Part shown: positions 4,733 to 20,000 of the stretch, in pieces | Numbering within the stretch: the first letter of the stretch is position 1 | Layout of the letters: every line of letters begins with the position of its first letter | DNA from: an uncultured virus (IMG/VR IMGVR_UViG_3300042308_001786) | Lineage: Duplodnaviria; Heunggongvirae; Uroviricota; Caudoviricetes | Length of the DNA stretch: 20,000 nucleotides | Reading direction: 5' to 3' (one strand) | IMG/VR virus record: IMGVR_UViG_3300042308_001786 | Translations under genes and position numbers: made by a program | The notes under the pieces: model-generated | The model's database searches: none | The model's input: the letters and a program-made list of their open reading frames with translations, nothing else | What the model was told of the DNA's origin: nothing

Positions 4733-5956
4733 ATGGGACAAATTATTGCAGGTGGCGAACAGTTTGAAACTCATATTGAAGCCGACTATCGTGGAAAGAT
4801 TTTACAAAAAGGACCAGATAGTGGGGCTGTAGATGCTTTTGGAAGACAGCGTACCAGTGCTCCTTATACGCTTTTTGATAGCACAATGCGCTATGACAAG
4901 CGTCCTGATCAATGGTTTGACAGTATTGTTGGTAGCGGCACTTCTACATTTTTGACGCATCAAAGCAGTGTTGCGATGAGTGCCACCACTGCATCGGGAG
5001 ATACTGTTCTTCGTCGCACTAAGCAGAACTTTCCTTACCAAGCAGGCAAAAGCATGATGCTTTTGCAAAGCTTTGTAGGAGCTCCGCTTGCTTCTGGCCT
5101 CATTCAGGAAGTGGGAATTTTCAACGACCAGAATGGCGTGATGCTACGCGCCAGTGGTACCACGGTGCAGTTTGTCATTAGAAGCTACGCTTCTGGCACT
5201 ATCAATGAAAATGCAGTAAATCAAAGCGATTGGAATATTAATACGCTCTCTTCTCTTGATTTTTCAAAAGCACAAATCTTTACTGCTGATCTGGAATGGC
5301 TTGGCGTGGGGCGTGTTCGGTGTGGTTTTGTTATTGATGGAGAAATAGTGTATTGCCATGAGTTTGAACATTTCAATGCATTGGACAGCGTTTATATGAC
5401 AACAGCTATTTTGCCATTGTCATATCGCATTCATAATGCAACGGCTCAAGCTTCTTCTGCAACGATGAAGCACGTGTGTTGCAGCCTTTTAAGCGAAGGC
5501 GGCTACGAGCCAGATGGCGCCATTTATTCAGTTGGGCACGATCTTTCAACTGTATCTAATGCTTCTGGAGAGCGCATTACTGCTGGTATTCGCATGGCTA
5601 GTGGTCGCACTGGCAATGTCATCCTTCCCGTGAGAATTTCTACTACTACTGCGTCTAGCGATGTGGTGTTATGGAGATTACGGCTGAATCCTACGCTTTC
5701 TGGCGTAACTTGGAGCGCTGCCAACAATGGCAGGGGAAATGTGGAAGTGACGACCAGTGGCACTGCTTCTGGAGGCACCGTGATTGACTCAGGCTTTGTC
5801 AGCCAAGGCAGTGCTAATAACTATGCAGTGGCAGAAGCTATTCGCTTAGCGCTAGGGCAAAACGCCTCTGGCGTTAGCGACACTTTGATTCTTACTGTGG
5901 ACAGCAGCTTAAGCGCCAAGGCTTTAGGCATGATTGGCTGGGTGGAAGTAGTTTGA
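4733..5956 (+). CDS. Conserved hypothetical phage protein (407 aa), probably virion-associated
   Basis: Long ORF that looks beta-rich, with DAFGRQRTS..TLFDS, YQAGKS and EWLGVGRVRCGF motifs; no function recognised. Confidence 0.7.
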   Translation: MGQIIAGGEQFETHIEADYRGKILQKGPDSGAVDAFGRQRTSAPYTLFDSTMRYDKRPDQWFDSIVGSGTSTFLTHQSSVAMSATTASGDTVLRRTKQNFPYQAGKSMMLLQSFVGAPLASGLIQEVGIFNDQNGVMLRASGTTVQFVIRSYASGTINENAVNQSDWNINTLSSLDFSKAQIFTADLEWLGVGRVRCGFVIDGEIVYCHEFEHFNALDSVYMTTAILPLSYRIHNATAQASSATMKHVCCSLLSEGGYEPDGAIYSVGHDLSTVSNASGERITAGIRMASGRTGNVILPVRISTTTASSDVVLWRLRLNPTLSGVTWSAANNGRGNVEVTTSGTASGGTVIDSGFVSQGSANNYAVAEAIRLALGQNASGVSDTLILTVDSSLSAKALGMIGWVEVV

Positions 5957-5989
5957 CCAGTTAAACTAAGGAGTCTTGCCTTTCCTTCA

Positions 5990-6199
5990 ATGGATGCTTT
6001 TAAGGACCAGTGGTATAAACAGCAAGTAGATCACATCTCTGACGCTCTTCAAGAGCTTCTCACTGATGATGATCCTTCTATTGCCGCCAAGGGGCTAAGC
6101 GATGCCATTGCTAGCTGGGAAGATTATCACGAGAAGGAGCTAGCTAAATGGAAGCGCCTTAGGGCGCTTCTAAACTGGAAAGAGAGCGGTTTTCTTTAA
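5990..6199 (+). CDS. Hypothetical protein (69 aa)
   Basis: Helical acidic ORF filling the gap; TAAACT and AAGGAG upstream. Confidence 0.65.
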   Translation: MDAFKDQWYKQQVDHISDALQELLTDDDPSIAAKGLSDAIASWEDYHEKELAKWKRLRALLNWKESGFL

Positions 6200-6228
6200 A
6201 GGTCTTCATTTTCTCTTTGAGCATCGTC

Positions 6229-6291
6229 TAAGATAAAAGGGCAGCGGAACTGCAATTCCCTGCCCACGGATACCTAAAGGAGGTAGGCATC
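6229..6291 (+). promoter_or_regulatory. Putative -10 box plus structured leader of NUMOD4-HNH gene 1
   Basis: TAAGAT (6229-6234); hairpin GGGCAGcGGAA-CTGCAA-TTCCCTGCCC (6239-6265); second hairpin involving the AAGGAGG SD. Confidence 0.55.
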
Positions 6292-6855
6292 ATGTCCATG
6301 ATAGAAGAATGGCGCCCCATCGTTGGTTACGAGGGGCTTTACGAGGTGAGCAGCTTCGGTCGGGTCAGGAGCCTTGACCGAGCTTCGCGAGACAAGAATG
6401 GTCTACTCAAAAGGTTTAAAGGCAAAATCCTGTCTATTTGTATCAGAAAGAACAAGTATGGACAATACGCGATGGTTGGATTACCATTAAAGGATGGTAG
6501 TAAAAATAATACGCGATATGTAGCGCATTTAGTGCTCGAAGCTTTTGGCTGTCTCCGCCCCAGCGGAATGGAGTGTTGTCATTGTGACGGTAATTCGCTC
6601 AATAATCGAATTGATAATTTGCGCTGGGATACGCCCAAGGAAAATACAAAAGACAAATATAGGCACGGCACCGTTTTGTGGGGCTCAAAGAACCACCAAG
6701 CTCGGCTCACGGAGAAGCAAGTACTAGAAATACGAGCTAAATATATTCGCTACTCAAAAACTAAATCAAATAGCAGGCAGTTGGCAGATGAATACGGGGT
6801 TGACATACAGACTATAGGGAAAATTATTAGGCGAGAACGTTGGAAGCATATTTAA
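6292..6855 (+). CDS. NUMOD4-HNH homing endonuclease with C-terminal HTH
   Basis: EEWRPIVGYEGLYEVSSFGRVRS (NUMOD4); HLVLEAF...CCHCDGNSLNNRIDNLRWDTPKEN (HNH); RQLADEYGVDIQTIGKII (HTH). Confidence 0.9.
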   Translation: MSMIEEWRPIVGYEGLYEVSSFGRVRSLDRASRDKNGLLKRFKGKILSICIRKNKYGQYAMVGLPLKDGSKNNTRYVAHLVLEAFGCLRPSGMECCHCDGNSLNNRIDNLRWDTPKENTKDKYRHGTVLWGSKNHQARLTEKQVLEIRAKYIRYSKTKSNSRQLADEYGVDIQTIGKIIRRERWKHI

Positions 6856-7790
6856 CCTTCTTGGAAAACGCTAATAAAGACAGCTCCCTTGTCTGTTAGT
6901 GGCAAAATTTTATCGCGCAAATCAATATTACGAGCACGACAACAACCCATTGTTGGCATTAGTTTTTGATTTGGAGCCCACGCGCCTGGCCACCCAAGTG
7001 CACTAGATCCGCCATGAAGCATGATCCCTGCACGCCCATTATCCCTTTCTTGCCCCTCTAGATCAATCATGTCAAAACTGTACCAGCCATAAGCCATAAG
7101 CGTACGATCATAGGCAGGTTTGTCGCCTACTCTGTCATAATCTCGATAAATCGTGCCTAGCTTGTACAGACCTGGAGGACAATCACTGTTTTGGATGCGC
7201 CATTCAAAGTCACTATATTGCCCACGAGCAAGGCAAGGGATTTCCCACAATAGTTTTCCTTCATAGGAAAAAGCTTTCATGGTTTCCACTGCATCGTTCA
7301 CAACCAAATGCGAATCGCCAGGTTTAAAGCCAAAGTCTTGAGGACGCTTCTTGGGGCCAATCATAGTAAATTGCGTGGTTTCTGGGGCATATTCTTTCAT
7401 GAGTTTAGAAAGCTTTGCAGGATAATCGGGATCCGTTGCATAGCTTTGTTCCTTGAGCATGCGTGCTGCCGCATAGCGATTAGGCGCATTGTTCACGCCC
7501 TTAAATTGACGATAATCTTTGTACCAGCGGGTTACAAGATATTCAATGCAAGCAGCAAGGCTAGGGAAATCAATAAACCCTGCCTTAATTGTCACCCATT
7601 GACCGTCGTACCATTCTTGCGTGGTAGTAGTGGTGCCACTCCCCTTTAGGCCGAACGCATTCCATTGCCCAGAAAAATGCTTGCCAAAGCCACTCTCAAG
7701 CGCCCATTGGGCTGCCACTAGTTCAGGGAATCTGGCTCCGACTCTCTTGGCATGATCTTGAACTCCTTTCCATGTGTTGGGGATTTCCAT
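6852..7790 (-). CDS. Endolysin: GH73/FlgJ-like glucosaminidase plus C-terminal YkuD/L,D-transpeptidase-like domain
   Basis: AQWALESGFG, NAFGLKG and YATDPDY (GH73 motifs); GIMLHGG...PTMGCCR (His...GC motif of the YkuD family). Confidence 0.8.
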   Translation of the reverse strand: MEIPNTWKGVQDHAKRVGARFPELVAAQWALESGFGKHFSGQWNAFGLKGSGTTTTTQEWYDGQWVTIKAGFIDFPSLAACIEYLVTRWYKDYRQFKGVNNAPNRYAAARMLKEQSYATDPDYPAKLSKLMKEYAPETTQFTMIGPKKRPQDFGFKPGDSHLVVNDAVETMKAFSYEGKLLWEIPCLARGQYSDFEWRIQNSDCPPGLYKLGTIYRDYDRVGDKPAYDRTLMAYGWYSFDMIDLEGQERDNGRAGIMLHGGSSALGWPGAWAPNQKLMPTMGCCRARNIDLRDKILPLTDKGAVFISVFQEG

Positions 7791-7819
7791 GGCTAGATCC
7801 TCTATTCATAAAGTCTAGC

Positions 7820-7890
7820 TGTTATGATTTTTGTGGGTCCGCGTGATTGCAGTCACCGAACCCGTGGATCACTCGCCTAATCGAGCAACC
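7820..7890 (+). promoter_or_regulatory. Putative extended -10 promoter plus structured leader of NUMOD4-HNH gene 2
   Basis: TGtTATGAT (7820-7828); hairpin GGGTcCGcGTGA-TTGCAG-TCACCGaACCC (7835-7863); then CTCG-cctaat-CGAG. Confidence 0.55.
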
Positions 7891-8448
7891 ATGGACATTA
7901 TCGCAGAAGAATGGCGCCCAGTGCCAGGCGCTGAAGGTCGTTACGAAGTTAGCAATCTTGGGCGTGTCAAAAGCCTAAGACGAGTCGTCTCTTGTGGCAT
8001 CCGACAAGGGAAACGGGCCTATCGGACTGTGCCAGAGAAAATATTAAAACCTGGACTTGACAAAGACGGCTATGCGCAAGTCTTAATAGCACAAACTGAG
8101 GGTGATAAATTTAAAAACACTAGAATTCATCAACTAGTAGCATTGGTGTTTCTTGGGCCTAAGCCAAAGGACAAATGGGTTCTGCATGGTCCCAATGGAA
8201 AAGAAGACAATAGCGTTGGAAATTTATACTATGGAACTCCCGCTCAAAATATTAAAGACAAGTGGAGGGACGGCACTATCATTATTGGCGAAAAGCATCA
8301 CAAAGCCAAACTAAAAGAGGCTGATGTTATTGAAGTTCGCGAGCTGTACGAGCAAGGCTTAACGTGCAAAGAAATCGCGGCTCGCTATAGCGTAGGCGAT
8401 ACCGCGATTGCAAAAATCATCAACAGAGAAAACTGGAAATGGCTCTAG
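7891..8448 (+). CDS. NUMOD4-HNH homing endonuclease with C-terminal HTH (185 aa)
   Basis: Start moved to ATG 7891 by alignment with the paralogue (MDIIAEEWRPVPGAEGRYEVSNLGRVKS); HQLVALVF...VLHGPNGKEDNSVGNLYYGTPAQN; KEIAARYSVGDTAIAKII HTH. Confidence 0.9.
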   Translation: MDIIAEEWRPVPGAEGRYEVSNLGRVKSLRRVVSCGIRQGKRAYRTVPEKILKPGLDKDGYAQVLIAQTEGDKFKNTRIHQLVALVFLGPKPKDKWVLHGPNGKEDNSVGNLYYGTPAQNIKDKWRDGTIIIGEKHHKAKLKEADVIEVRELYEQGLTCKEIAARYSVGDTAIAKIINRENWKWL

Positions 8449-8452
8449 TCTT

Positions 8453-8596
8453 TCAGCCCTTCACACGGAAGACTGCCTTAAGGCCAGTCATGATCAATTG
8501 CAGGATGTTGTTTTCTTTATAAGGAGTGCGTTCGATAATTTGATCGGCAGCAGCAACAAGAATGCCACCAACCACAAACCATTCAATGCCGCCCAT
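8453..8596 (-). CDS. Putative holin-like small membrane protein (47 aa)
   Basis: Not in the ORF track. MGGIEWFVVGGILVAAADQIIERTPYKENNILQLIMTGLKAVFRVKG; GGAGG SD; hydrophobic N-terminus; same strand as the endolysin and upstream of it. Confidence 0.6.
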   Translation of the reverse strand: MGGIEWFVVGGILVAAADQIIERTPYKENNILQLIMTGLKAVFRVKG

Positions 8597-8625
8597 GATT
8601 TCCTCCCAGGAGGGTTTCTTAAAGC

Positions 8626-8835
8626 CTAGCGCTTAATTTCTAAACTACGCACTCTTGTTTCAATGTCACTCATCTTATCCGTTAAAGCACTAAGCTTTTC
8701 CGTAATGCTTTCAATTTGCACTGCCACTTTGGCTTGTTGATTGCCAACAGTGATAAGCATGGCCCCAGTGGAAAGAAGCATGCCAGCCGTGATAGTGGCC
8801 ACAAAATTGGCCATGCCTTCTTTAAAGGAGTCCAT
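8626..8835 (-). CDS. Single-TM plus coiled-coil protein (69 aa), possibly lysis-related
   Basis: MDSFKEGMANFVATITAGMLLSTGAMLITVG (TM) followed by a heptad region; ATG 8835 with AGGA upstream. Confidence 0.6.
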   Translation of the reverse strand: MDSFKEGMANFVATITAGMLLSTGAMLITVGNQQAKVAVQIESITEKLSALTDKMSDIETRVRSLEIKR

Positions 8836-8922
8836 GGAGATTTCCTGCAATTTTTATATTAGCGAACGCGCACTACTCTCTAAAGGCCCGTTAGATTATT
8901 TCCAGAAAAAGTAAATAGTGCC

Positions 8923-9405
8923 ATGCGAAGAGCGAATGGTCCCGATGAGCTGCTTTATTCTCTCATTGAACTTCGCCCTGGAGACGCAAGACGCAGATTT
9001 CGCAAGAGCATTTTTGAAGACTATCCGCTACGTGGTCCTCTTGGACAATGCGCCTGTGCATATTGCGGGCGATGGGATCAAAAGCTAACGATTGACCATA
9101 TTGTGCCTAAAAGCAAGGGTGGGCCTCATTTTGCAAAATATAATTTAGTGCCAAGTTGTCAAGCGTGTAATTTACTAAAAGGAGCTGAGCCTATTTTTGA
9201 ATGGTGGCGTCCACAGCGTTTCTGGACTGAGAAGCGAGAAGAGCTTCTTCTTGCATGGGTGCATCACAATAGCTTTGTTAGCGCCCACACTTCTTTGCAG
9301 GATATTGAAGCATTCGCAGAGGAGCGTGATTATTACATTCCACCGTCAAAAGAAGAAGCCCCCATTTCTGGGGGCTTTTGTTATACAGAATGGCAGGCAG
9401 CTTAG
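8923..9405 (+). CDS. Zn-finger HNH endonuclease (McrA/HNH_5-like)
   Basis: CAYCG...LTIDHIVPKSKGG...NLVPSCQACNLLKG. Confidence 0.88.
   Translation: MRRANGPDELLYSLIELRPGDARRRFRKSIFEDYPLRGPLGQCACAYCGRWDQKLTIDHIVPKSKGGPHFAKYNLVPSCQACNLLKGAEPIFEWWRPQRFWTEKREELLLAWVHHNSFVSAHTSLQDIEAFAEERDYYIPPSKEEAPISGGFCYTEWQAA
9346..9378 (-). terminator. Terminator for the - strand operon, embedded in the HNH 3' end (possibly bidirectional)
   Basis: Stem GAAGCCCCCA-tttc-TGGGGGCTTT at 9355-9378, with T-rich tails on both strands. Confidence 0.65.
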
Positions 9406-9776
9406 GCTTTATCTACGGGATCAAATAGCACTTGCTTACCAGGAAGATCGTAGCGAATGCCTGGCATTGGACAGAAGCCATCCTTACAGCCATTGTCCAC
9501 ATTATTTTCAATGGCAGCTAGAGCTTCACGCTCTTGATCAGTTTCAAGCGCAAAAATAAGCTGATTGAGATACCACTTGGCTTTCTCTAAATCTTCAAGA
9601 CCATTTTTACTTTCATAGCGCCAAACATACTTGAGTACGTTGCCTTTACAAAAGCCGCGATAGGCTTCAGTGCTCATGCTGGCTTCAATGCCTTCAATGG
9701 CTTCAATGCCACCAAATGCATAGTGCTTGGGGCGTTCCACTGGATGGAAAGCTTCAGGAGCTTGTTCAAAAGGCAT
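9402..9776 (-). CDS. DUF3310 family protein (T7 gp1.7-like nucleotide kinase / SaV-like)
   Basis: HPVERPKHY...IEAIE...GNVLKYVWRYESKNGLEDLEKAKWYL; start 9776 or 9782 overlaps the thyX stop. Confidence 0.8.
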   Translation of the reverse strand: MPFEQAPEAFHPVERPKHYAFGGIEAIEGIEASMSTEAYRGFCKGNVLKYVWRYESKNGLEDLEKAKWYLNQLIFALETDQEREALAAIENNVDNGCKDGFCPMPGIRYDLPGKQVLFDPVDKA

Positions 9777-11409: not shown

Positions 11410-11704
11410 GCAAAAATACTTTCCAGCCACAAAGCATGGCTAAGTTAAACTTTCTGGCGTCTCGTTCGTAGCCAGAGCCAGTAACATGACGACCACGATT
11501 AAAAGTGCCGCCTTGTATTTCAATGAGAGAGCGAGAAGGAAGATGTGCAAAATCTGCCCTGTAACGTTTTGAACGCTTGCTTTTTGCATAGCGCTCTTGA
11601 AAATCAGCTTCCCAGGCTTCTACATCGCTGAATTCCCTGATCAATGGGAGATCGGGATAGTGAGCTTGCCAAAGCCCGAGAAACTGATCTTCTAATGCGC
11701 TCAC
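11342..11704 (-). CDS. PD-(D/E)XK, Vsr/DUF559-like endonuclease
   Basis: YRADFAH...LIEIQGG...GRH...GYERDARKFNLAMLCGWKVF. Confidence 0.75.
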   Translation of the reverse strand: MSALEDQFLGLWQAHYPDLPLIREFSDVEAWEADFQERYAKSKRSKRYRADFAHLPSRSLIEIQGGTFNRGRHVTGSGYERDARKFNLAMLCGWKVFLLTSQTAKEIAWLEKIAAVLRMS

Positions 11705-11707
11705 GAG

Positions 11708-12295
11708 CTATACAGCAGCAAAAGCTACTTTAGCTCCTTGATTTTGATATTTACCATCGCCATAGGCGCTGGCGACATCGTTTTCTAGCTTCATAAACAT
11801 CACTTGAACGATGCCTTCATTAGCGTAGACCCTTGCTGGAAAAGCCAAGGGATTGACAATACAAATAGTGAGATAGCCAGACCAGCCAGGCTCAATTGGC
11901 GTAACGTTAATGATTGTGCCTTGACGTGCATACGTTGACTTCCCGTCAGTGATGCCCATCACATTGTTAGGCATCGAGATGCGTTCAAGGCTAACGCCAA
12001 GAGCGTAGGAAAAAGGCGGAAGCACGAAGAACGTACTGCCATTTTCTTGTCGAGGCGTCTGCTCTTCCATCAGCTCCGTGTCGAAGCTTTTCACATCCAG
12101 AGGGAAGTCCTTACTTACGCTGTTATCAATGACCATAAAGCCTTCAGGAGAAAGACGCAGGTCATAACCAGCGTGAGACAAGCCGTAAGACAAAGCTTTC
12201 GTGCCATTGTCCAGCTCGCGACGCTTCTCTCCCGTGAAAGGAAAGATGATATCGTTTTCAGCGAGAATGCTAATTTGCTTGTCGTTGAGAAGCAT
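11708..12295 (-). CDS. dcd: dCTP deaminase
   Basis: MLLNDKQI, SYGLSHAGYDLRL, GKSTYARQG, NVTPIEPGWSGYLT, YANEGIVQ, KYQNQ. Confidence 0.93.
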   Translation of the reverse strand: MLLNDKQISILAENDIIFPFTGEKRRELDNGTKALSYGLSHAGYDLRLSPEGFMVIDNSVSKDFPLDVKSFDTELMEEQTPRQENGSTFFVLPPFSYALGVSLERISMPNNVMGITDGKSTYARQGTIINVTPIEPGWSGYLTICIVNPLAFPARVYANEGIVQVMFMKLENDVASAYGDGKYQNQGAKVAFAAV

Positions 12296-12322
12296 GAAAG
12301 AAAAGGGGCGTTGCCGCCCCTA
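12296..12322 (-). terminator. Intrinsic terminator
   Basis: Minus strand: AGGGGCG-GCAA-CGCCCCT followed by TTTCTTTC. Confidence 0.75.
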
Positions 12323-12344
12323 AGAAACAACGATGGAAAGAGCG

Positions 12345-12758
12345 CTATTTGACGCGCCCTGATTCGGAAATAGGCAGGGGGACAAGACCATCAGTGGGAA
12401 TGTACACGACAGTCTTTTCACCTTGCTTGCCCTCCTGATCTTGAAGCCCTGTGATATACAGATACTTCAAATACTCAGGATTACCTTTAAGGCTATCGCC
12501 AATGATTTTATTGGCTTTAGCCACGCCTTCGGCGCGTGCCACTTCAGCATCAGCCTCTAAAACTGCTGCTTCTTTTTTAGCTTTAGCCTCATACACCCTC
12601 ACTTGGCGAGTGGATTCAGCTCCCTGCAGCATTGCTTTGCCATTTTGCGTTTTGCTATAGATGTTGTATTGAGGCCCAATCCAGAAAAGACTAGCAAGGC
12701 CAAACAATGCGACAACTAAGACAAGAACAACTTCGGCTGAACCGTTGTCTTTCCGCAT
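12345..12758 (-). CDS. Membrane-anchored protein with SPFH/HflC-like coiled-coil C-terminus
   Basis: N-terminal TM; EAEVARAEGVAKANKIIGDSL.GNPEYLKYLYI...VVYIPT. Confidence 0.7.
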   Translation of the reverse strand: MRKDNGSAEVVLVLVVALFGLASLFWIGPQYNIYSKTQNGKAMLQGAESTRQVRVYEAKAKKEAAVLEADAEVARAEGVAKANKIIGDSLKGNPEYLKYLYITGLQDQEGKQGEKTVVYIPTDGLVPLPISESGRVK

Positions 12759-12767
12759 TGCTCAGGC

Positions 12768-13052
12768 TCAGAACAGATCGTCGTTAGACGAAGACGATGC
12801 GAAGCTGCTGCCTGCACTTTCGCCGTTCTGCCAGAAAGAAGAATAAGCCTTAGGGCTATTTTCCATCTTGTTGACAGTCACTTGCCCCTTGAAATGAGGA
12901 GCAGTGTCCTTATCACGCTTATCGTTGTTCCACAGTGCCACGCGGAAGCTGTAGTTTCCTTGTGCATTGGGACCAGCCTTTTTGGCTGCATTCAGAATGT
13001 CGGGGGTGAGATCGACAGTACCGCTGAAAACGGGGAGATTGCCAGAGGGCAT
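12768..13052 (-). CDS. Putative single-stranded DNA-binding protein (94 aa)
   Basis: Beta-rich with aromatics (ALWNN..DTAPHFKG); flexible tail ending in acidic-aromatic NDDLF; downstream of the exonuclease and Sak3 genes. Confidence 0.5.
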   Translation of the reverse strand: MPSGNLPVFSGTVDLTPDILNAAKKAGPNAQGNYSFRVALWNNDKRDKDTAPHFKGQVTVNKMENSPKAYSSFWQNGESAGSSFASSSSNDDLF

Positions 13053-13123
13053 GTAGTGTTCCTCAGAAGGAGAGTGGTCGGCCCTGGAGGGGCTCTAGAA
13101 GCATAGCTGGTGCAGACGAGGAG

Positions 13124-14155
13124 TCAAGCTCCGCGGTCCATAGAAATGGTTAAGGCATGGGAATAATATGATTACTCTTGCCAGCGTTGCACTCACGGCA
13201 TAGCACTTGCAGGTTTGCCGCATCGTTTGTGCCGCCTTTGGACACGGGGTGAATATGGTCAATCTCAAGGACTGCCCCATTCGACCTAGATGCGCCACAC
13301 ATTTGGCAAGTGTATTTGTCTCGGACCAGTATTGCCACGCGATCTTTGGGTTTAATCGCAGACCTTTTGATTGGATTATTTAAACGACGGGCATTTTTGT
13401 TGTATGCGATATGACTCAATAGTGCCCATGGTGGTCCCCACTCGCATTGTGTTGCCATTTGGGCTGCAAACCAAAAATCATTGCGTTTTGTCTGCTCCAT
13501 CCAAGCAAAGTCGTGCCCACTTTCTTTATGCTCTTCGTATTCATCCCTTGCGTCCTTCAAGCGATCATCAAAGACTATATAAATTGGGACGCCAAGTGCG
13601 TATGCATAGCCGATTTCAGCCAACGTTCCATAGCAATCTGGTGAATCTATAAATGCATACAATGCGTCACATGTACGAATTTGGTACATGCAACGCTCTA
13701 ACACCTGTGACCTTGAAAGTCCATTCTCGCCGTCAGGACAACTTGTCTCTTGCTGAATTGCGTATAAATATTCGCGGCCATGGACCGGCACATCGTGAAG
13801 CCTTTCCCTTGAAGAGCCAAATAATGTTTGATCTTGCGCAAAAGGATTGTTAATGCCATGATTGCTTTTATGCCAGCATCCATGGTCGCACGACAATGCG
13901 CTCGGTCCTCCATAGCGCACTGTTCCCAAATCATATAGATCTAGCGGATTATCGTAGACAGAATGCTCTGATCCTATCGCCCTAGACATAATGCGATCAT
14001 CCTGGAACAGACTTCTCCTGTAATCACTGCTTCCTTTGCGAACCTTTCCAGCAAAATAAACCAAGAGTGGCTCAAGCAAATTCCGCTGATTTGCGGAGTT
14101 AAAGGTGTGTTCAATGGCCACAATCAAGCTCCACGGTCCATGGAAATGGTTAAGG
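13124..14155. mobile_element. 1000-bp inserted cassette bounded by 32-bp direct repeats (13124-13155, 14124-14155)
   Basis: TCAAGCTCCrCGGTCCATrGAAATGGTTAAGG, 30/32 identical; the repeat is the 3' end of the exonuclease gene. Confidence 0.8.
13150..14127 (-). CDS. Nucleoside 2-deoxyribosyltransferase-like (NDT/RCL fold) domain fused to C-terminal Zn-HNH endonuclease
   Basis: VYFAGK; IRTCDALYAFIDSPDCYGTLAEIGYAYALGVPIYIV (NDT GTxxE motif); RDKYTCQMCG...LEIDHIHPVSKGGTNDAANLQVLCRECNAGKS. Start is TTG 14127 or GTG 14121. Confidence 0.8.
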   Translation of the reverse strand: MIVAIEHTFNSANQRNLLEPLLVYFAGKVRKGSSDYRRSLFQDDRIMSRAIGSEHSVYDNPLDLYDLGTVRYGGPSALSCDHGCWHKSNHGINNPFAQDQTLFGSSRERLHDVPVHGREYLYAIQQETSCPDGENGLSRSQVLERCMYQIRTCDALYAFIDSPDCYGTLAEIGYAYALGVPIYIVFDDRLKDARDEYEEHKESGHDFAWMEQTKRNDFWFAAQMATQCEWGPPWALLSHIAYNKNARRLNNPIKRSAIKPKDRVAILVRDKYTCQMCGASRSNGAVLEIDHIHPVSKGGTNDAANLQVLCRECNAGKSNHIIPMP

Positions 14156-14924
14156 GGCGTCCGCCTGGGTAGTACTCGAAAAAGTACTGTTGCGTCTTCT
14201 GAGCCATGATCCCTGCCTGCATGGCAAGATCGGTGCCGTCAAGGCTCACGATTTGAGCCTCCTGTCCTTTGCCCGTATCGGGATCGTAAATGGCGATAGC
14301 GCAATGCGCCTCGTTGATTTCGATGCCATACATCTGCTCAATGGCTTGGGAATAAGCTCCGAGCTGCATGCGATAGTCGCCTAACTGCGTATCAGGCTTT
14401 TGTTTGTAGCTTGTCTTCCAATCAAGCAGGGCGATATTGCCGTTGCCCATGGTCGCAAGCATGTCAAATGTGCCTGAGTAGCCAGTTTCAGTGGAGGGGC
14501 AATACCAAGCGATGGCACTTTCCACTAAGAGGGGGCTAGCCACGCCAGTGAGGAAGTTGGCAATGCTGTCGAAATAAGGAACGAACAATGGATGGGAATC
14601 AAGGTGACAGTTGATGTCCTCGCCGTTCCAGAAATCCTCTAGCACGCCATGAAGCCAATTACCACGTTCTACAGCAGAGCGTGTGCGACGATTAGCTTCC
14701 TCATCGCCTACTTTCTTGCGCCAGTTCATGAGCGCTGCAATCTTGCCAGGCGGCGAACACGCGCTCGCAATAGTCGTCACAGAGGGCAAAACAATGCCTT
14801 CTGGGGCATTTGGAAAACCGTTCAAAACGTAATTCCGCTTGCCGTTCAAGGAGATTCGGTTGGGTTCGTAGCGGGCGAGAGAAGGCATCGAAAGAGCGTC
14901 GAGACATAGATCGTAACAGGGCAC
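14124..14924 (-). CDS. PD-(D/E)XK exonuclease (lambda-exo/RecB/Cas4-like phage family)
   Basis: LPSVTTI, LMNWRKKVG, RGNWLH, VES, YSGTFDML, LLDWKTS, QLGAY; alternative start ATG 14888. Confidence 0.85.
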   Translation of the reverse strand: MPCYDLCLDALSMPSLARYEPNRISLNGKRNYVLNGFPNAPEGIVLPSVTTIASACSPPGKIAALMNWRKKVGDEEANRRTRSAVERGNWLHGVLEDFWNGEDINCHLDSHPLFVPYFDSIANFLTGVASPLLVESAIAWYCPSTETGYSGTFDMLATMGNGNIALLDWKTSYKQKPDTQLGDYRMQLGAYSQAIEQMYGIEINEAHCAIAIYDPDTGKGQEAQIVSLDGTDLAMQAGIMAQKTQQYFFEYYPGGRPLTISMDRGA

Positions 14925-15247
14925 TATTTCTCATTCATGTCCCAGAAATACTCGCAGCCTTCTTCCGTATAAGGCGGCGTTGCAAAATAACTTTGGAAGC
15001 GATCAGAGGGCGCCATGTAACGCCAGCAATCTTCCTTGACAGGGCATTTGTCGCCCGTACACATTGCAATATCAGGCATGAGAATAGTTCGTGCAGTTTG
15101 ATAAAGGAAAGTGCGATCAGCCAGAGGATGTTCAGCAATAGCGTGGAGAACAGCAGCAATACGACGGTCGCTGCTAAGCGTATCGTCAGGAAAGCTCCAG
15201 AATGCTTCATGGCAAGCATCAATCAGCGTCCGTCTGTTTGTCAACAT
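14924..15247 (-). CDS. Hypothetical protein with C-terminal 4-Cys module
   Basis: MPDIAMCTGDKCPVKEDCWRY...QSYF...CEYFW. Confidence 0.65.
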   Translation of the reverse strand: MLTNRRTLIDACHEAFWSFPDDTLSSDRRIAAVLHAIAEHPLADRTFLYQTARTILMPDIAMCTGDKCPVKEDCWRYMAPSDRFQSYFATPPYTEEGCEYFWDMNEK

Positions 15248-15470
15248 CTTTCAGCAAGTCTGCAAATTCTTCTGCTTGTGCATTGAAGGCGTCAACAATG
15301 AGAGAGCGCGAATAACCACAGCCCATTAAATAACAGGCAAAGTCCTCGACAACTTCGTATATGGTTGCCTTGTAGCTCACCACTTCAATGTCAAAACTTG
15401 GGTCGCCATAGCGATTAGTTATTGAATGCTTCCATGAATGTTTCCATGGAGAAAGAGAAGAATCGTTCAT
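15219..15470 (-). CDS. Hypothetical protein (83 aa)
   Basis: In operon, overlapping its neighbours. Confidence 0.6.
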   Translation of the reverse strand: MNDSSLSPWKHSWKHSITNRYGDPSFDIEVVSYKATIYEVVEDFACYLMGCGYSRSLIVDAFNAQAEEFADLLKDVDKQTDAD

Positions 15471-15607
15471 GGTAGAACTAAGCTTGCAAGGAACAAAATG
15501 AGCAAGGCCAGAGCTGTAGAAGCAAAAGCAACTAGCAGGAACAAGCCAAGAGGATCGTCAGCTAAAGAGGCTGGAAGGAATGCAATTAATAGGGGCATTG
15601 TCTTCAT
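15467..15607 (-). CDS. Small hydrophobic membrane protein (46 aa)
   Basis: Not in the ORF track. MKTMPLLIAFLPASLADDPLGLFLLVAFASTALALLILFLASLVLP; ATGA coupling to the next gene. Confidence 0.5.
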   Translation of the reverse strand: MKTMPLLIAFLPASLADDPLGLFLLVAFASTALALLILFLASLVLP

Positions 15608-15621
15608 CAAGGCAAATGGTT

Positions 15622-15671
15622 CCAGCAAAGGCCCGCGCAAAGCGGGCCGCTGCTAGATCTATGGCTTTTTT
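15622..15671 (-). promoter_or_regulatory. Candidate -1 programmed frameshift signal (A_AAA_AAG, 8-nt spacer, stem-loop)
   Basis: Minus strand GCA AAA AAG CCA TAG; hairpin CTAGCAGCGGCCCGC-TTTGC-GCGGGCCTTTGCTGG (15656-15622). Confidence 0.55.
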
Positions 15672-16621
15672 GCAACGAAAGCTTTCATTGCTTCAACCAT
15701 TGTTTCCGTTGTATCGCAGGCGCGAACAAGATCAATTTCCTTAGTCATCTCTGTTTTAGTAATAACCATTTGCTCTTCCTTTGCCCAGACAGTCATCATG
15801 GCTGCTGCCACATTGCCAAACTGCTGCCATGTTTTCACTTCAGTGGCGCGAGACAGGCCGATAGCTTCCAGCGCAGCCTTACCAAGAGCCATGCTGTTCT
15901 TCTCATCGGCATAACCAAATGGATTGGCTTTGCAAATGGTGGTCAGGGCAGTTTTGGCATCAAATGCTTCATCACTGGTCCCTGTCGCAGCGGTGGGAGC
16001 ATTCCCTCCTTCTCCAGCAGGCTCAGAAGGAGCTTTAGCTCCCGTTGGCGCCTTGCTTGCCCGCGTAGTTTGCTTCGGAGCTTCCTGTTGGAGCGGGAGT
16101 TTGGGCGTTCCTTTTTCATCTTCTTTAGGGATGTCTTCACCTGCATAGAGACGCAGGCCAAGACCAGTGAAAGTGGCAATAGCCTTTACAGCAGCACGCT
16201 GGCAGTTGTCAGAGATGGCACGACCATCAAGCTCCTTAATGGAATTATGCTTCCTGTCCATGATCGGGAAGATCAAGGCAACAGTACGGCGGCAGCCATC
16301 AGTGAGGTAGGGGCGGAGATAGTAAGCGCCTGGTGTGCCAAACACCACTTCCCCAACGGTCTTCTCTTCAAAGGCTACAAAATACGTAGGGAAATGCTCC
16401 TTCAAATAGCGATAGGCAAAGGGCCAGGACAGATAAGACAAGCCCTTGTAGTCCTTCTCGATGTGAGGCCCGATGTCAGGCGTATCGTAAGCAGCCTTGA
16501 AGGCTTCAGCGCTGATCTCCAGAGGAGAGAAGATGCCGTTGTAACGGTCCATTGCGGCTTGTTTGGCAGGGTCCATGGAAGAAAAATCAGACGGGGAATA
16601 GAGCATAAAAGAATGGTTCAC
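15659..16621 (-). CDS. Sak3-like / DUF1071 single-strand annealing protein (Rad52-like) with C-terminal extension
   Basis: IEKDYKGLSYLSWPFAY, FPIMDRKHNSI, ISDNCQRAAVKAIA..GLGLRLYAGEDIP; then a Pro/Ala linker and a helical domain. Confidence 0.85.
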   Translation of the reverse strand: MNHSFMLYSPSDFSSMDPAKQAAMDRYNGIFSPLEISAEAFKAAYDTPDIGPHIEKDYKGLSYLSWPFAYRYLKEHFPTYFVAFEEKTVGEVVFGTPGAYYLRPYLTDGCRRTVALIFPIMDRKHNSIKELDGRAISDNCQRAAVKAIATFTGLGLRLYAGEDIPKEDEKGTPKLPLQQEAPKQTTRASKAPTGAKAPSEPAGEGGNAPTAATGTSDEAFDAKTALTTICKANPFGYADEKNSMALGKAALEAIGLSRATEVKTWQQFGNVAAAMMTVWAKEEQMVITKTEMTKEIDLVRACDTTETMVEAMKAFVAKKP

Positions 16622-17419: not shown

Positions 17420-17587
17420 GGACGAGAGGCATCGGAAACATGGCCAGACTAGCCATAGTTTTTAGCCCTGCCAACCACGTTGAGCATTGCTGTTGCTTAT
17501 GCTTCTGCTCGTCTCGCATGGTTTTAGCTTATAAGTCTGTTGCTTCTTGATTTCCTTGCTACAACGGGGGCATTCCCACTCCTTTCC

Positions 17588-20000
17588 ATGGCATTCTCCA
17601 TCCTGGACCACATTGAGAAGCTTGAGACAAGCGATCATCCAGGGAAATACATCTGTCCAGCATGCGGAGGCAATGACCTCTCCATCAACACTAACAATGG
17701 TGCCTACAACTGTTTCAATGATGATTCAGCAAAGCACCGCGCCGAAATTCGTAACATCCTTGCTCCGCTTGATCGTTGGGAGCGCCCTCTTCGTGAACCA
17801 CAGTCTTACACTTTCCCCTACAAAAATAGGCAAGGCGAAACTACTATTAACGTGCATCGTGATGATGCAAGTGGCAAGAAAACAATTAAACAAAGCTACC
17901 CTTCAGTGCCGCAGGGCACGCATCAACGTAAAGCATACATTGATGAAATAAGAAGCACCATTCTTCCTTATCGCTTTGATGAGGCTCTTACTGCTTCACA
18001 GGTGACTGGACTTCCCATCTTCATTGTTGAAGGGGAACTCACATGTGACAGGCTATGGGAGATCGGGATTCCCTCGGTCACTTTCCTTGGTGGCAGCGGT
18101 CAGTATCGGGCCAACGGCGACTACTCCCTATTGTTTCGCGGCAAGAAGATTGTTCTATGCCCTGATCGTGATGAGCCTGGCATTGCTCTCATGCGAGAAG
18201 TGGCTTCAGATAATCCTGGGGCGCAATGGCTTTATGCCGATCCTGGCAATTTTGAATGGGACAGCCTTCCGCAAAATGGAGGCTACGACTTAGCTGACTG
18301 GCTTGATGATGGCGCAGACCAAGAACTCATCCTTTCCTCCATTGTTTCAAAGGATCGCCATGAAGGCAAAGATGGGCTTCCTTCCTATGAGGAAATCATT
18401 GGCACCTTTGAGCGCATGGTCGGGCTATTTGACAATGATGCTCGCGTGGCGTTTGAAGCTTCTAAATGGCTAGAAGCTCATGGCGTGAAGATGGCGCAAG
18501 CAAATATTGACAAGATGATTGACGAGGCGCGTTCTCGCTTGTTTGGCAAGGAGGAAATAGAAACTATTGACGTGCTGCAATTAATTGATGATGATTCCGT
18601 TCGTGAATGGCTGATTGCTGGCATTGTTCCGCTTGGTAGCGTCACTCTCCTTGCTGCGCAGGGCGGCACTGGTAAAGCTCAGAGCCTGGACAGCAAGATT
18701 CTCACCCCCGATGGCTGGACAACCATGGGAGAGCTTCACGTGGGCAGTAAGGTCATTGCAATGGATGGAACGGTGGCGAAGGTCACGGGAGTCTTTCCAC
18801 AGGGCGTCAAGCCTCTTTATCGGGTCACTATGAGCGATGGCAGTTCTACCATTTGCTGCGACGAGCATCTGTGGCTCACAAAAACCGAGAACGAGCGCAA
18901 TCTTAAACGCTCATGGAATATCAGGTCTCTTTCGGAAATTCGCTCTTCAATTCGTCGCGGTAATTCCGATAAGCGGAATCACTCAATTCCCATGGTTGGT
19001 CCTGTTCAATTTGAGAAAAAGGATCTTCCCATTCACCCCTATTTACTTGGCGTGATTCTTGGTGACGGAAATATTTCCAGCAATTCTTGCTCTGTAACTC
19101 TTTCGGATGATGAAATTGTTTATCGCATTCAAAAACTGCTTCCTCGTTATCACGATTTGAAGGTTCAAGAGAAAGCGAAAAAATGCACTACTTATGCGAT
19201 TCGCCAAAACTGCTCGACTACTATCTCGCCTGGTATTCGCGATATGTTGCGCGAAATGGGTTTGTGGGGCAAGCGCTCTTGGGAAAAGCACGTTCCACAA
19301 GAGTATCTTTTTTCCTCCGTTCAAGATCGCATGGACCTGTTACATGGCTTGATGGATACTGATGGAACCACAGGCGGCAGCCATACAACATTCGATTCTG
19401 CATCTAAAGACTTGGCGGAAGCTGTTCAATTCTTGGTTCTTTCCATTGGCGGCAAGGCAAGGCTCACTCAACGCCGCACTTTCTTCACTTATCTAGGACA
19501 GAAGAAACAAGGACGGATTAGTTATCGTGTTTTCATCTCAATGCCTTCTGGTTTTAAAAGCTTTAGTATTTCAGCCAAGGCAAGCAAGGAAACGCCGCGC
19601 ACCAAGTATTTACCCTCTCGCTTAATTGAATCAGTTGAATACATCGGAGATGGAGAAGCACAGTGCATCATGATTGACCATCCTTCGCATGCTTATGTAA
19701 CTGACGATTTTATTGTTACGCACAACACCAGCCTGGTCTACAACTGGGCTCTTGGCGTGGCCACTGGCTCTTCATGGTCTGGGCGGCGTTGCTTGCCTGG
19801 CAAATGCCTGCTCATCTCTGCTGACGAACCATTGTCAGACACCAAAGAAAAGCTTTCCATCATCGGCTATCAAGAAGCCAACATTCAGCCTGGCATGATT
19901 TCTTTCTGGGAAACCTGGCGCTTTGCTCACATGCAACAACTAGAACGCTTCATTAAAAAGCATCGCCCAGTGTTTGTCGTGATTGATTCGCTCACTGCAT
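17588..20000 (+). CDS. DNA primase-helicase (Zn-binding + TOPRIM + RecA-like/AAA_25 helicase), intein-containing, 3' truncated
   Basis: Absent from the ORF track because no stop lies in the window. Manual translation: MAFSILDH...ICPACGG...YNCF; IFIVEGE; LCPDRDEPG; EWLIAGIVP; Walker A AAQGGTGK|T; Walker B FVVIDSL. Confidence 0.9.
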   Translation, partial: MAFSILDHIEKLETSDHPGKYICPACGGNDLSINTNNGAYNCFNDDSAKHRAEIRNILAPLDRWERPLREPQSYTFPYKNRQGETTINVHRDDASGKKTIKQSYPSVPQGTHQRKAYIDEIRSTILPYRFDEALTASQVTGLPIFIVEGELTCDRLWEIGIPSVTFLGGSGQYRANGDYSLLFRGKKIVLCPDRDEPGIALMREVASDNPGAQWLYADPGNFEWDSLPQNGGYDLADWLDDGADQELILSSIVSKDRHEGKDGLPSYEEIIGTFERMVGLFDNDARVAFEASKWLEAHGVKMAQANIDKMIDEARSRLFGKEEIETIDVLQLIDDDSVREWLIAGIVPLGSVTLLAAQGGTGKAQSLDSKILTPDGWTTMGELHVGSKVIAMDGTVAKVTGVFPQGVKPLYRVTMSDGSSTICCDEHLWLTKTENERNLKRSWNIRSLSEIRSSIRRGNSDKRNHSIPMVGPVQFEKKDLPIHPYLLGVILGDGNISSNSCSVTLSDDEIVYRIQKLLPRYHDLKVQEKAKKCTTYAIRQNCSTTISPGIRDMLREMGLWGKRSWEKHVPQEYLFSSVQDRMDLLHGLMDTDGTTGGSHTTFDSASKDLAEAVQFLVLSIGGKARLTQRRTFFTYLGQKKQGRISYRVFISMPSGFKSFSISAKASKETPRTKYLPSRLIESVEYIGDGEAQCIMIDHPSHAYVTDDFIVTHNTSLVYNWALGVATGSSWSGRRCLPGKCLLISADEPLSDTKEKLSIIGYQEANIQPGMISFWETWRFAHMQQLERFIKKHRPVFVVIDSLTA
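18677..19726 (+). mobile_element. Class 3 intein (350 aa) with LAGLIDADG homing endonuclease
   Basis: Begins AQSLDSKILTPDGW directly after GK; block B CCDEHLW; LLGVILGDG and LLHGLMDTDG; block F EAQCIMID; ends IVTHN followed by Thr+1. Confidence 0.92.

Follow-up and report, generated by a model that had tools for sequence, protein, structure and literature searches.

An HNH nuclease gene bracketed by a duplicated exonuclease gene end in an S-CBS4-like phage: a candidate homing cassette

We analysed a stretch of 20,000 nucleotides (nt) of DNA from an uncultured virus of the Caudoviricetes (IMG/VR IMGVR_UViG_3300042308_001786; hereafter the window, whose positions are used throughout) and found that a single nuclease gene lies directly behind a phage exonuclease gene and is followed by a repeat of the exonuclease gene's final 32 nt. 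We think it probable that this insert is a single-gene, free-standing homing-type HNH cassette that works like the mORFs of fungal mitochondria and the WHO elements of yeasts. This reading is based on the anatomy of the insert, exact empty sites in relatives, the recurrence of the layout over deep lineages, purifying selection on the nuclease, coding-like variation in the downstream repeat copy, and chimeric repeat copies. The source phage is a freshwater siphovirus similar to Synechococcus phage S-CBS4.

Results

A 32-nt duplication of the exonuclease end brackets the cassette

All genes at the site are on the minus strand. We call the repeat copy at the end of the exonuclease gene U (upstream) and the copy at the end of the nuclease gene D (downstream). 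Read along the gene strand, the features are:

14124..14924, minus strand: PD-(D/E)XK exonuclease gene, 266 amino acids (aa), homologue of S-CBS4 exo gp075
14124..14155, minus strand: upstream repeat copy U, the exonuclease's last 9 codons and stop, containing GGAG at 14132-14129
13150..14121, minus strand: cassette gene, 323 aa, GTG start 2 nt past the exonuclease stop, the sole open reading frame (ORF) in the cassette
13387..14073, minus strand: N-terminal domain resembling nucleoside-2-deoxyribosyltransferase (NDT), about residues 17-245, with an inserted Cys/His cluster (Pfam Nuc_deoxyrib_tr, 6.7e-9)
13171..13308, minus strand: C-terminal HNH nuclease domain (Pfam HNH 8.2e-13 and HNH_5 1.1e-11; PDB 5h0m, HNH endonuclease, 1.8e-7)
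13124..13155, minus strand: downstream repeat copy D, an untranslated duplicate of the exonuclease 3' end
13100..13127, minus strand: promoter-like site TTGACT-16-TATGCT, a consensus match only, its first hexamer straddling the D stop codon
12768..13052, minus strand: gene of 94 aa with an acidic ...NDDLF tail, homologue of S-CBS4 gp074 (38% identity, E 6e-22)

In a repeat search, 13124-13155 and 14124-14155 form the longest direct repeat in 11500-16000 (32 nt, 94% identity, 30/32), and the two copies are spaced exactly 1000 nt from start to start. In the exonuclease frame of the minus strand, both copies read L-T-I-S-M-D-R-G-A-stop, and the two mismatches (TCC/TCT for Ser and CGT/CGC for Arg) are silent. 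An earlier prediction made from the letters of the window alone (the original prediction) had described this pair, and had also proposed that U both completes the exonuclease and carries a Shine-Dalgarno sequence for the nuclease; repeat search and translation agree on each point. The GGAG at 14132-14129 is 7 nt ahead of the GTG at 14121-14119 and is retained in 4/5 U copies of related occupied contigs. We take this GTG, as predicted, to be the real start rather than the TTG at 14127 of a mechanical ORF list, because seven relatives have ATG at that position.

Two parts of the original prediction needed revision. It held that the nuclease gene borrows its stop from the repeat, since the first 6 nt of D (CCTTAA) are the final codon and stop of the cassette gene (13155-13150). 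We observed that the C-terminal ...PMP is nearly invariant across nuclease homologues and that ATG CCT TAG ends the nuclease in contigs L161 and L162, where no repeat exists. Because ...PMP-stop (ATG CCT TAA/TAG) is near-invariant even without a repeat, the stop is the nuclease's own, and CCTTAA is therefore a 6-nt identity common to the native end of the nuclease gene and the exonuclease. This microhomology may be the place where the right junction first formed. The prediction also stressed a cassette of exactly 1000 base pairs, which is true of the window; the round figure is a coincidence, because the U-D spacing varies among contigs (1000 in L007, 991 in L087 and L158, and 1039 in L160).

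The structure is not an assembly artefact, an outcome that the original prediction had named as fatal, because it is carried by an identical metagenome contig (L156, which has the whole structure) and by independent contigs in Logan from four lake or freshwater runs (X5, X8, X10 and X11). X5 holds the whole stretch as one piece, X8 and X11 have pieces spanning both junctions, and the pieces listed for X10 cover the cassette interior and the flanks, with neither junction. Two cassette variants are present in X11. Precise loss of the cassette by recombination between the repeats, as had been proposed, is plausible; no joints across the cassette (excision or empty site) were found in the Logan contigs of X5, X8, X10 and X11 over 12700-14700, where contigs drop rare variants and hence are uninformative on loss.

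Relatives have exact empty sites, and one position is occupied repeatedly

Relatives of the exonuclease are encoded by 122 stretches in IMG/VR, of which the best 80 were used to count empty sites. At 79 of the 80 loci the site is empty, such that the exonuclease stop is followed by about 71 nt and then by the 94-aa gene (55 distinct sequences, exonucleases 76-98% identical in aa); the sole occupied locus in the best 80 is L007. The nearest cultured phage, S-CBS4, is also empty, with its 94-aa homologue starting 23 nt after the exonuclease. The window equals an empty site plus 1000 nt, and its D together with the following 60 nt is identical to several empty loci, consistent with the predicted insertion. 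In two empty loci (L049 and L079) the interval from exonuclease stop to next gene is longer by about 50 nt.

Occupied sites are found at one fixed position in 8 contigs. Contigs with the nuclease gene behind the exonuclease gene compare with the window as follows (identities are to the window's proteins):

L007: nuclease 93%; 32-nt duplication; U/D 28/32
L087: nuclease 61%; 32-nt duplication; U/D 28/32, including a Met/Thr difference
L158: nuclease 60%; 32-nt duplication; U/D 29/32
L157 (truncated): nuclease 71%; D present, U partly visible; U/D not scored
L160: nuclease 53%, exonuclease 65%; exact 17-nt duplication; U/D 17/17
L159 and L161: nuclease 53%, exonuclease 42-43%; no detectable duplication

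In L007, L087, L158 and L157 the order is the same: the exonuclease end (U), a 2-nt spacer, ATG, and a nuclease whose CCTTAA end lies within D. In L160, D is 55 nt past the nuclease stop, and 0/500 shuffles reach the score of the duplication. In L159 and L161 the nuclease gene is directly behind the exonuclease, and local alignment for a decayed D there was no better than shuffles (291/500 and 278/500 reach the score). The original prediction would have failed had homologues never been associated with duplicated gene ends; nuclease relatives carry duplicated exonuclease ends repeatedly. By eye, the regions behind the nucleases of L159 and L161 faintly resemble the exonuclease end of the window's clade, a resemblance that we do not rely on. 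A homologue 52% identical to the nuclease (L162) is in another context, with no exonuclease nearby and neighbours without a Pfam family.

The cassette gene joins an NDT-like domain to an HNH nuclease and is under purifying selection

A search of 5.8 billion proteins returned 26 full-length homologues of the cassette protein, 45-72% identical and all unnamed. The HNH (beta-beta-alpha-metal) motif is intact, with D288, H289 and N312 and two Cys pairs invariant in the 26 sequences, and VYFAGKV, D-C-x-G-T-x-x-E-I-G and the Cys/His cluster are invariant in the homologue alignment. The N-terminal domain matches PF05014 with 36.3 bits (cut-off 28.8). Its invariant E169 aligns with E88 of the solved NDT of the cyanobacterium Chroococcidiopsis, which we take to be the catalytic nucleophile of that enzyme. 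The same residue is changed in entry 8pqq 'E88Q'. D62 of the Chroococcidiopsis enzyme aligns with the invariant C144, such that the conserved Asp is not matched; enzymatic activity of the NDT-like domain is uncertain because the D62 equivalent is an invariant Cys.

An AlphaFold model of the protein has a mean pLDDT of 71, and a fold search with it against PDB gave no match with E <= 0.001, only weak HNH, NDT, DNPH1 and BcmB rows. PADLOC returned generic HNH-domain matches only, and leads from a protein atlas were all below 0.9. In the nuclease subfamily of L159 and L160 there is a conserved C-terminal extension (...PLRW[DES][VI]); in L160 this extension can, on inspection by eye, pass for an exonuclease end that has diverged and shifted frame, and it may be co-opted duplicate sequence.

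Compared with its L007 counterpart, the cassette gene has a nonsynonymous rate (dN) of 0.038 and a synonymous rate (dS) of 0.443 (dN/dS about 0.09), values by which we judge the nuclease gene to be functional and under strong purifying selection. As the original prediction stated, no integrase or transposase is encoded: Pfam found neither family in the single ORF of the cassette or in the other ORFs of the window. No inverted repeats were found at the cassette ends, and no Rfam RNA element or intron matched within 12300-15000 with E up to 1. The ORF of the cassette stands apart from the exonuclease, starting 2 nt past its stop, and is not intein-like. Group I or II introns and inteins, considered as explanations of the insert, were rejected on these grounds.

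The two repeat copies vary like exonuclease alleles and are chimeric in one contig

D is intact in 5/5 contigs although it is untranslated beyond its first 6 nt, with about 3/32 differences between deep lineages. The spacer next to D (16-18 nt) is scrambled between clades. Across the five D copies there are 7 variable columns, of which 5 are codon-third positions, 1 is a synonymous CGA/AGA pair and 1 is a Thr/Ile difference that is natural in functional alleles. D thus looks as if it were repeatedly refreshed from working exonuclease genes. In all four contigs with both full 32-nt copies (the U of L157 is truncated), U and D differ by 2-4 nt.

In L158, the 286 nt upstream have 2 differences from the empty locus L074. 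Its U is the L074 allele save at the cassette-proximal 3' end, where GGG is replaced by GGA (which creates GGAG), and its D is the L074 allele save at the cassette-proximal 5' end, where ATG is replaced by ACC. Such chimeras are the pattern expected if the cassette entered by recombination within the repeat. For L087, the empty locus L071 is the nearest match to D, to the 60 nt after it and to the next gene (1, 3 and 10 differences; next best 2, 18 and 29), and U and the region upstream are nearest to alleles other than L071, so that the mosaic boundary is at the cassette. In L087 and L158 the two copies fall into different natural allele classes. These patterns, judged over few sites, are compatible with co-conversion and would be expected from a break within a recipient's only exonuclease end that is repaired on the left from a donor's U and on the right from its D. 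The original prediction proposed that the element brought a replacement 3' end from another allele; this is better seen in L087 and L158 and is undecidable in the window, where U and D are each 1 nt from identical natural alleles and where the TCC/TCT assignment is swapped relative to L007.

The nuclease lineages are older than the exonuclease alleles that they occupy

Between the window and L007, dS of the flanking genes is 0.24-0.33. Between the nucleases of the window and those of L087 and L158, synonymous sites are saturated (proportion of synonymous differences, pS, 0.73-0.81). The exonucleases of L087 and L158 are 98% identical in aa over their last 315 nt and the nucleases are 63.5% identical, a distance equal to that of each from the window's nuclease. 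Because the exonucleases are near-identical and the nucleases diverged, the nuclease lineages are older than the exonuclease alleles that they occupy, a sign either of movement between backgrounds or of flanks being exchanged frequently.

Duplication tracks a promoter-like site at the exonuclease end

In four sequences (the window, L159, L160 and L161) the interval from the cassette to the next gene contains a sigma-70-like site, in each case the only gene-strand match in a scan of about 1.2-1.6 kb. Besides the window's TTGACT-16-TATGCT, these sites, each a consensus match only, are:

L159, gene strand: TTGACA-17-TAAGAT
L160, gene strand: TTGACA-17-TACATT
L161, gene strand: TTGACG-17-TAATAT

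In 36/55 distinct empty sites the first hexamer straddles the stop codon, starting 3 nt before that codon ends, and the second-hexamer position reads TA(T/A)GCT in all 55 (one TAAACT). In L160 the promoter-like site and the 17-nt D copy start at the same base. For L159 and L161, the site is entirely in the spacer, and there is no duplication. Across these contigs, the exonuclease end appears to be duplicated where the promoter-like site overlaps that end. A TAA stop is found in 2/5 U copies, 0/5 D copies and 1/79 empty loci, a distribution in keeping with a constraint on TTGA from which U is released.

The 5' part of the repeat is itself unusual. Exonuclease codons 257-262 (14136-14156, minus strand; CCC TTA ACN ATT TCT ATG) are near-invariant at synonymous sites in 57 distinct exonuclease genes, with TTA in 57/57, ATT in 57/57, TCT in 55/57 and CCC in 56/57; mean codon entropy over the gene is about 0.9, and the four codons after the block vary freely. 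This conserved block may be an upstream promoter element, the target of the nuclease, both of these, or something else. Codons 45-55 of the exonuclease form a similar low-diversity block.

Genes around the site

The exonuclease is matched by Pfam PDDEXK_1 (9.5e-7) and PHROG 298 exonuclease (6.6e-43) and is 71% identical in aa to the S-CBS4 exo. The 94-aa gene, which directly follows the exonuclease in empty genomes, matched no Pfam or PHROG family. A Sak annealing protein gene is at 15659-16621, and genes for nucleotide metabolism (dCTP deaminase and ThyX) are nearby.

The window has three further free-standing HNH genes, around the endolysin gene, and a probable LAGLIDADG intein; a genome so rich in homing genes supports the homing interpretation of the cassette. 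The three genes are:

6292-6855, 7831-8448 and 8923-9405, plus strand: free-standing HNH genes, two NUMOD4 + HNH_3 and one HNH only

At 17540-19999 (plus strand) there is a RecA-family/AAA_25 ATPase gene, a homologue of S-CBS4 gp082 (662 aa), which is still open at 820 aa at the end of the window. LAGLIDADG_3 and Hom_end match at residues of about 500-655, which probably reflects an intein that contains a homing endonuclease.

Between the 94-aa gene and the dCTP deaminase gene is a gene for a 137-aa membrane protein of a 'protease' family (12345-12758, minus strand; PHROG 11227), which is a second presence/absence polymorphism with matches in 7/80 loci. It is near-identical (99% in aa) in L008, L009, L014 and L019, with 60%-identical partial matches in L068, L069 and L074, and about 110 nt of the gene are 77% identical to cyanomyovirus S-PM2.

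Discussion

A proposed mechanism and the points against it

Taken together, these data suggest a mechanism whose first insertion may have relied on exonuclease homology at one end and on the CCTTAA identity at the other. The nuclease would be translated from the exonuclease transcript through the GGAG in U, and would cut or nick the empty allele inside the conserved block ...ATTTCTATGGA... Repair on the occupied genome could then be carried out by the phage-encoded exonuclease and Sak annealing protein: the left end would pair with donor U and the right end with donor D, the intervening cassette would be copied, and the recipient's own exonuclease end would be left partly in U and partly in D. 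In the occupied genome, U would keep the exonuclease whole and give the nuclease its ribosome-binding site, and D would restore a stretch that the insertion would otherwise divide, in which the exonuclease end and the next gene's promoter region overlap. The duplication would be tolerated, and probably selected, since it would leave neither the exonuclease nor this promoter region broken.

Several observations count against a homing cassette of this kind. Cleavage, the target and homing, together with promoter function and the role of the NDT-like domain, are things that we infer. Occupancy is low, with 2 occupied contigs (L007 and L087) among the IMG/VR relatives seen. The conserved block is kept in both U and D, so protection of an occupied genome would call for an enzyme that requires context beyond both ends of the 32 nt, or else one that tolerates self-cutting. 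The NDT-like domain is no known DNA-binding module of homing endonucleases, and its invariant Glu suggests another enzymatic job. Other HNH genes do not share the layout: the window's three have no bracketing direct repeat of at least 14 nt (5800-9700), and a different, 205-aa HNH gene, inserted with a 94-aa ORF directly upstream of the exonuclease start in L015-L018 (2648-3497), has no flanking repeat longer than 9 nt and no gene-end duplication. The chimera argument draws on 3-4 polymorphic positions in one contig pair. The promoter calls are consensus matches, the scan of the window gave 2 sites with 1.6 expected from shuffles, and 19/55 empty sites fail the stop-straddling rule. Finally, the cassette's dS relative to L007 (0.44) is only 1.4-1.8 times that of the flanks, which also fits vertical co-inheritance.

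Alternative explanations

A serious competitor, which we consider clearly less likely, is a passive accessory gene whose nuclease does not drive its spread and which serves nucleotide salvage or acts as a nuclease against other phages or host DNA, with an active NDT-like glycosidase. It would have been captured once by homology-facilitated illegitimate recombination, through the exonuclease on the left and CCTTAA on the right, and its later history would be vertical descent, shuffling by ordinary phage recombination and repeated loss between the copies. Such a capture agrees with a CCTTAA that is native to the nuclease end and also present in the exonuclease, as at a microhomology junction, and a metabolic role agrees with NDT-like motifs that are invariant down to the aligned nucleophile Glu and with the nucleotide-metabolism neighbours dCTP deaminase and ThyX. 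Divergences of similar order in cassette and flanks fit as well, and so does the low occupancy; a 32-nt direct repeat beside phage recombination genes should delete readily. Strong purifying selection and persistence at one site in three or more deep lineages are not expected, however, of a gene that is so easily deleted and has no drive. An untranslated D should decay under vertical descent, yet it stays allele-like, and the L158/L074 chimeras and the L087 mosaic put recombination exactly at the cassette.

It is also conceivable, although we give it little credence, that D is kept purely by selection at the nucleotide level, as a promoter or upstream element of the next gene, and that its coding-like variation reflects occasional conversion from U. 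The near-invariance of codons 257-262 at synonymous sites in 57 unique genes would follow, as would a promoter-like site that overlaps the stop and an exact 17-nt copy in L160 that starts at TTGACA. Nucleotide selection alone does not predict the codon-third and synonymous variation of D, including the CGA/AGA pair, and the differences of 2-4 nt between U and D in four contigs mean that conversion between them is infrequent. It would also explain why D is retained but not how the cassette originated or spread, and so complements the homing interpretation rather than replacing it. The direct repeats around the insert and their round 1000-nt spacing could further recall an attachment site or target-site duplication left by an integrase or transposase, or an assembly artefact, readings to which we assign next to no weight. 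The cassette has one ORF with only HNH and NDT-like domains, the window's ORFs include no such families, the cassette ends lack the inverted repeats of a transposon, the copies of the repeat in any one genome are told apart by variants known from natural alleles, and independent contigs and runs have the structure too; as far as the sequence goes, these readings are refuted.

A bolder version of the homing interpretation, which we regard as unlikely, is that the cassette belongs to an undescribed class of phage homing elements, defined by a glycosidase-assisted homing nuclease and by a general rule of gene-end duplication. The NDT-like domain, with its invariant Glu and Cys/His cluster, may flip or excise a base of the target DNA while the HNH domain nicks; if so, a long two-part target site would explain why neither repeat copy alone is a target. 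Gene-end duplication may likewise arise wherever the 3' end of a host gene overlaps the promoter of the next gene, a rule that, if true, predicts where such cassettes can settle in phage genomes.

Comparison with known systems

Homing endonuclease genes of phages are usually described between genes or inside introns and inteins. In a limited search of titles and abstracts, we found no account of a phage in which a homing gene is flanked by the two copies of a duplicated gene end. Elements that integrate at tRNA or protein genes and restore their 3' ends do so with a recombinase of the tyrosine or serine type and with core sites that are identical. The original prediction drew its analogy with such elements at tRNA genes, and part of it stands, in that a second copy of the target's end keeps the gene functional; the cassette has no recombinase, and the analogy is looser than that with mORFs and WHO elements.

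The mORFs of fungal mitochondria form 'gene hybrids', in atp6 of Allomyces macrogynus and in atp6, atp9, cox2 and nad3 of Glomus sp. (Beaudet et al. 2013, PMC3630166), and C-terminal duplications of atp6 and cob are described in Endoconidiophora resinifera (PMC6279837). In the sections of these accounts drawn on here, the layout is that of the cassette and of L007, L087, L157, L158 and L160: a complete host gene, an endonuclease ORF and a displaced duplicate of the 3' end, with no splicing needed. A feature of the fungal elements is that the downstream duplicate resembles the allele of relatives that lack the endonuclease. Unlike them, the cassette resides in a phage, encodes HNH and NDT-like domains instead of LAGLIDADG or GIY-YIG, and has an endonuclease ORF that is not fused in frame to the host gene. 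Its duplicate is only 32 nt long with near-identical copies, whereas the fungal pairs are 64-81% identical, and it probably also holds promoter sequence of the next gene.

Each time a WHO element of the yeasts Torulaspora and Lachancea integrates, the 3' end of FBA1 is replaced (Coughlan et al. 2020, PMC7282813). There, as is proposed for the cassette, the old 3' end is left downstream. According to the portion of that study used here, the WHO nucleases, unlike that of the cassette, are intein-like and HO-related, and their allele-specific cleavage is shown experimentally; the cassette is known from sequence alone, and its two copies have no visible difference that would confer resistance. By nuclease type the cassette is neither LAGLIDADG, GIY-YIG nor WHO, and it would work like the mORF and WHO elements from outside their enzyme families.

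The cassette also resembles the free-standing HNH genes mobA-E of phage T4, as far as the parts of the T4 literature drawn on go, in being a single HNH gene between two phage genes, patchy in relatives, in a genome that holds several other such genes (PMC2988022, PMC2790892). The words 'duplication' and 'direct repeat' are absent from the text of the T4 mobile-element review that was available (PMC2988022), so a bracketing duplicate of the neighbouring gene's end is not part of the T4 description as given there. Unlike T4-type HNH homing genes as they are described in these sources, the cassette has an NDT-like N-terminal domain and not a NUMOD, helix-turn-helix or zinc-finger DNA-binding module.

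The layout is thus known in fungi and yeast and little described in phages. If the cassette homes as proposed, it represents a third route of entry into a compact phage genome, in which an element lands on a gene end and duplicates it, such that coding sequence and overlapping signals are both kept. The dozens of exact empty sites and the several nuclease lineages with one layout form a natural series, in which a 32-nt, a 17-nt or no duplication tracks the position of the downstream promoter-like site, and which opens the mechanism, the target and what the NDT-like domain does to direct tests. The series also links phage elements to the way of homing of the fungal mORFs and the yeast WHO elements. 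For annotation, short duplicated gene ends beside HNH genes would mark recent mobility and recombination breakpoints.

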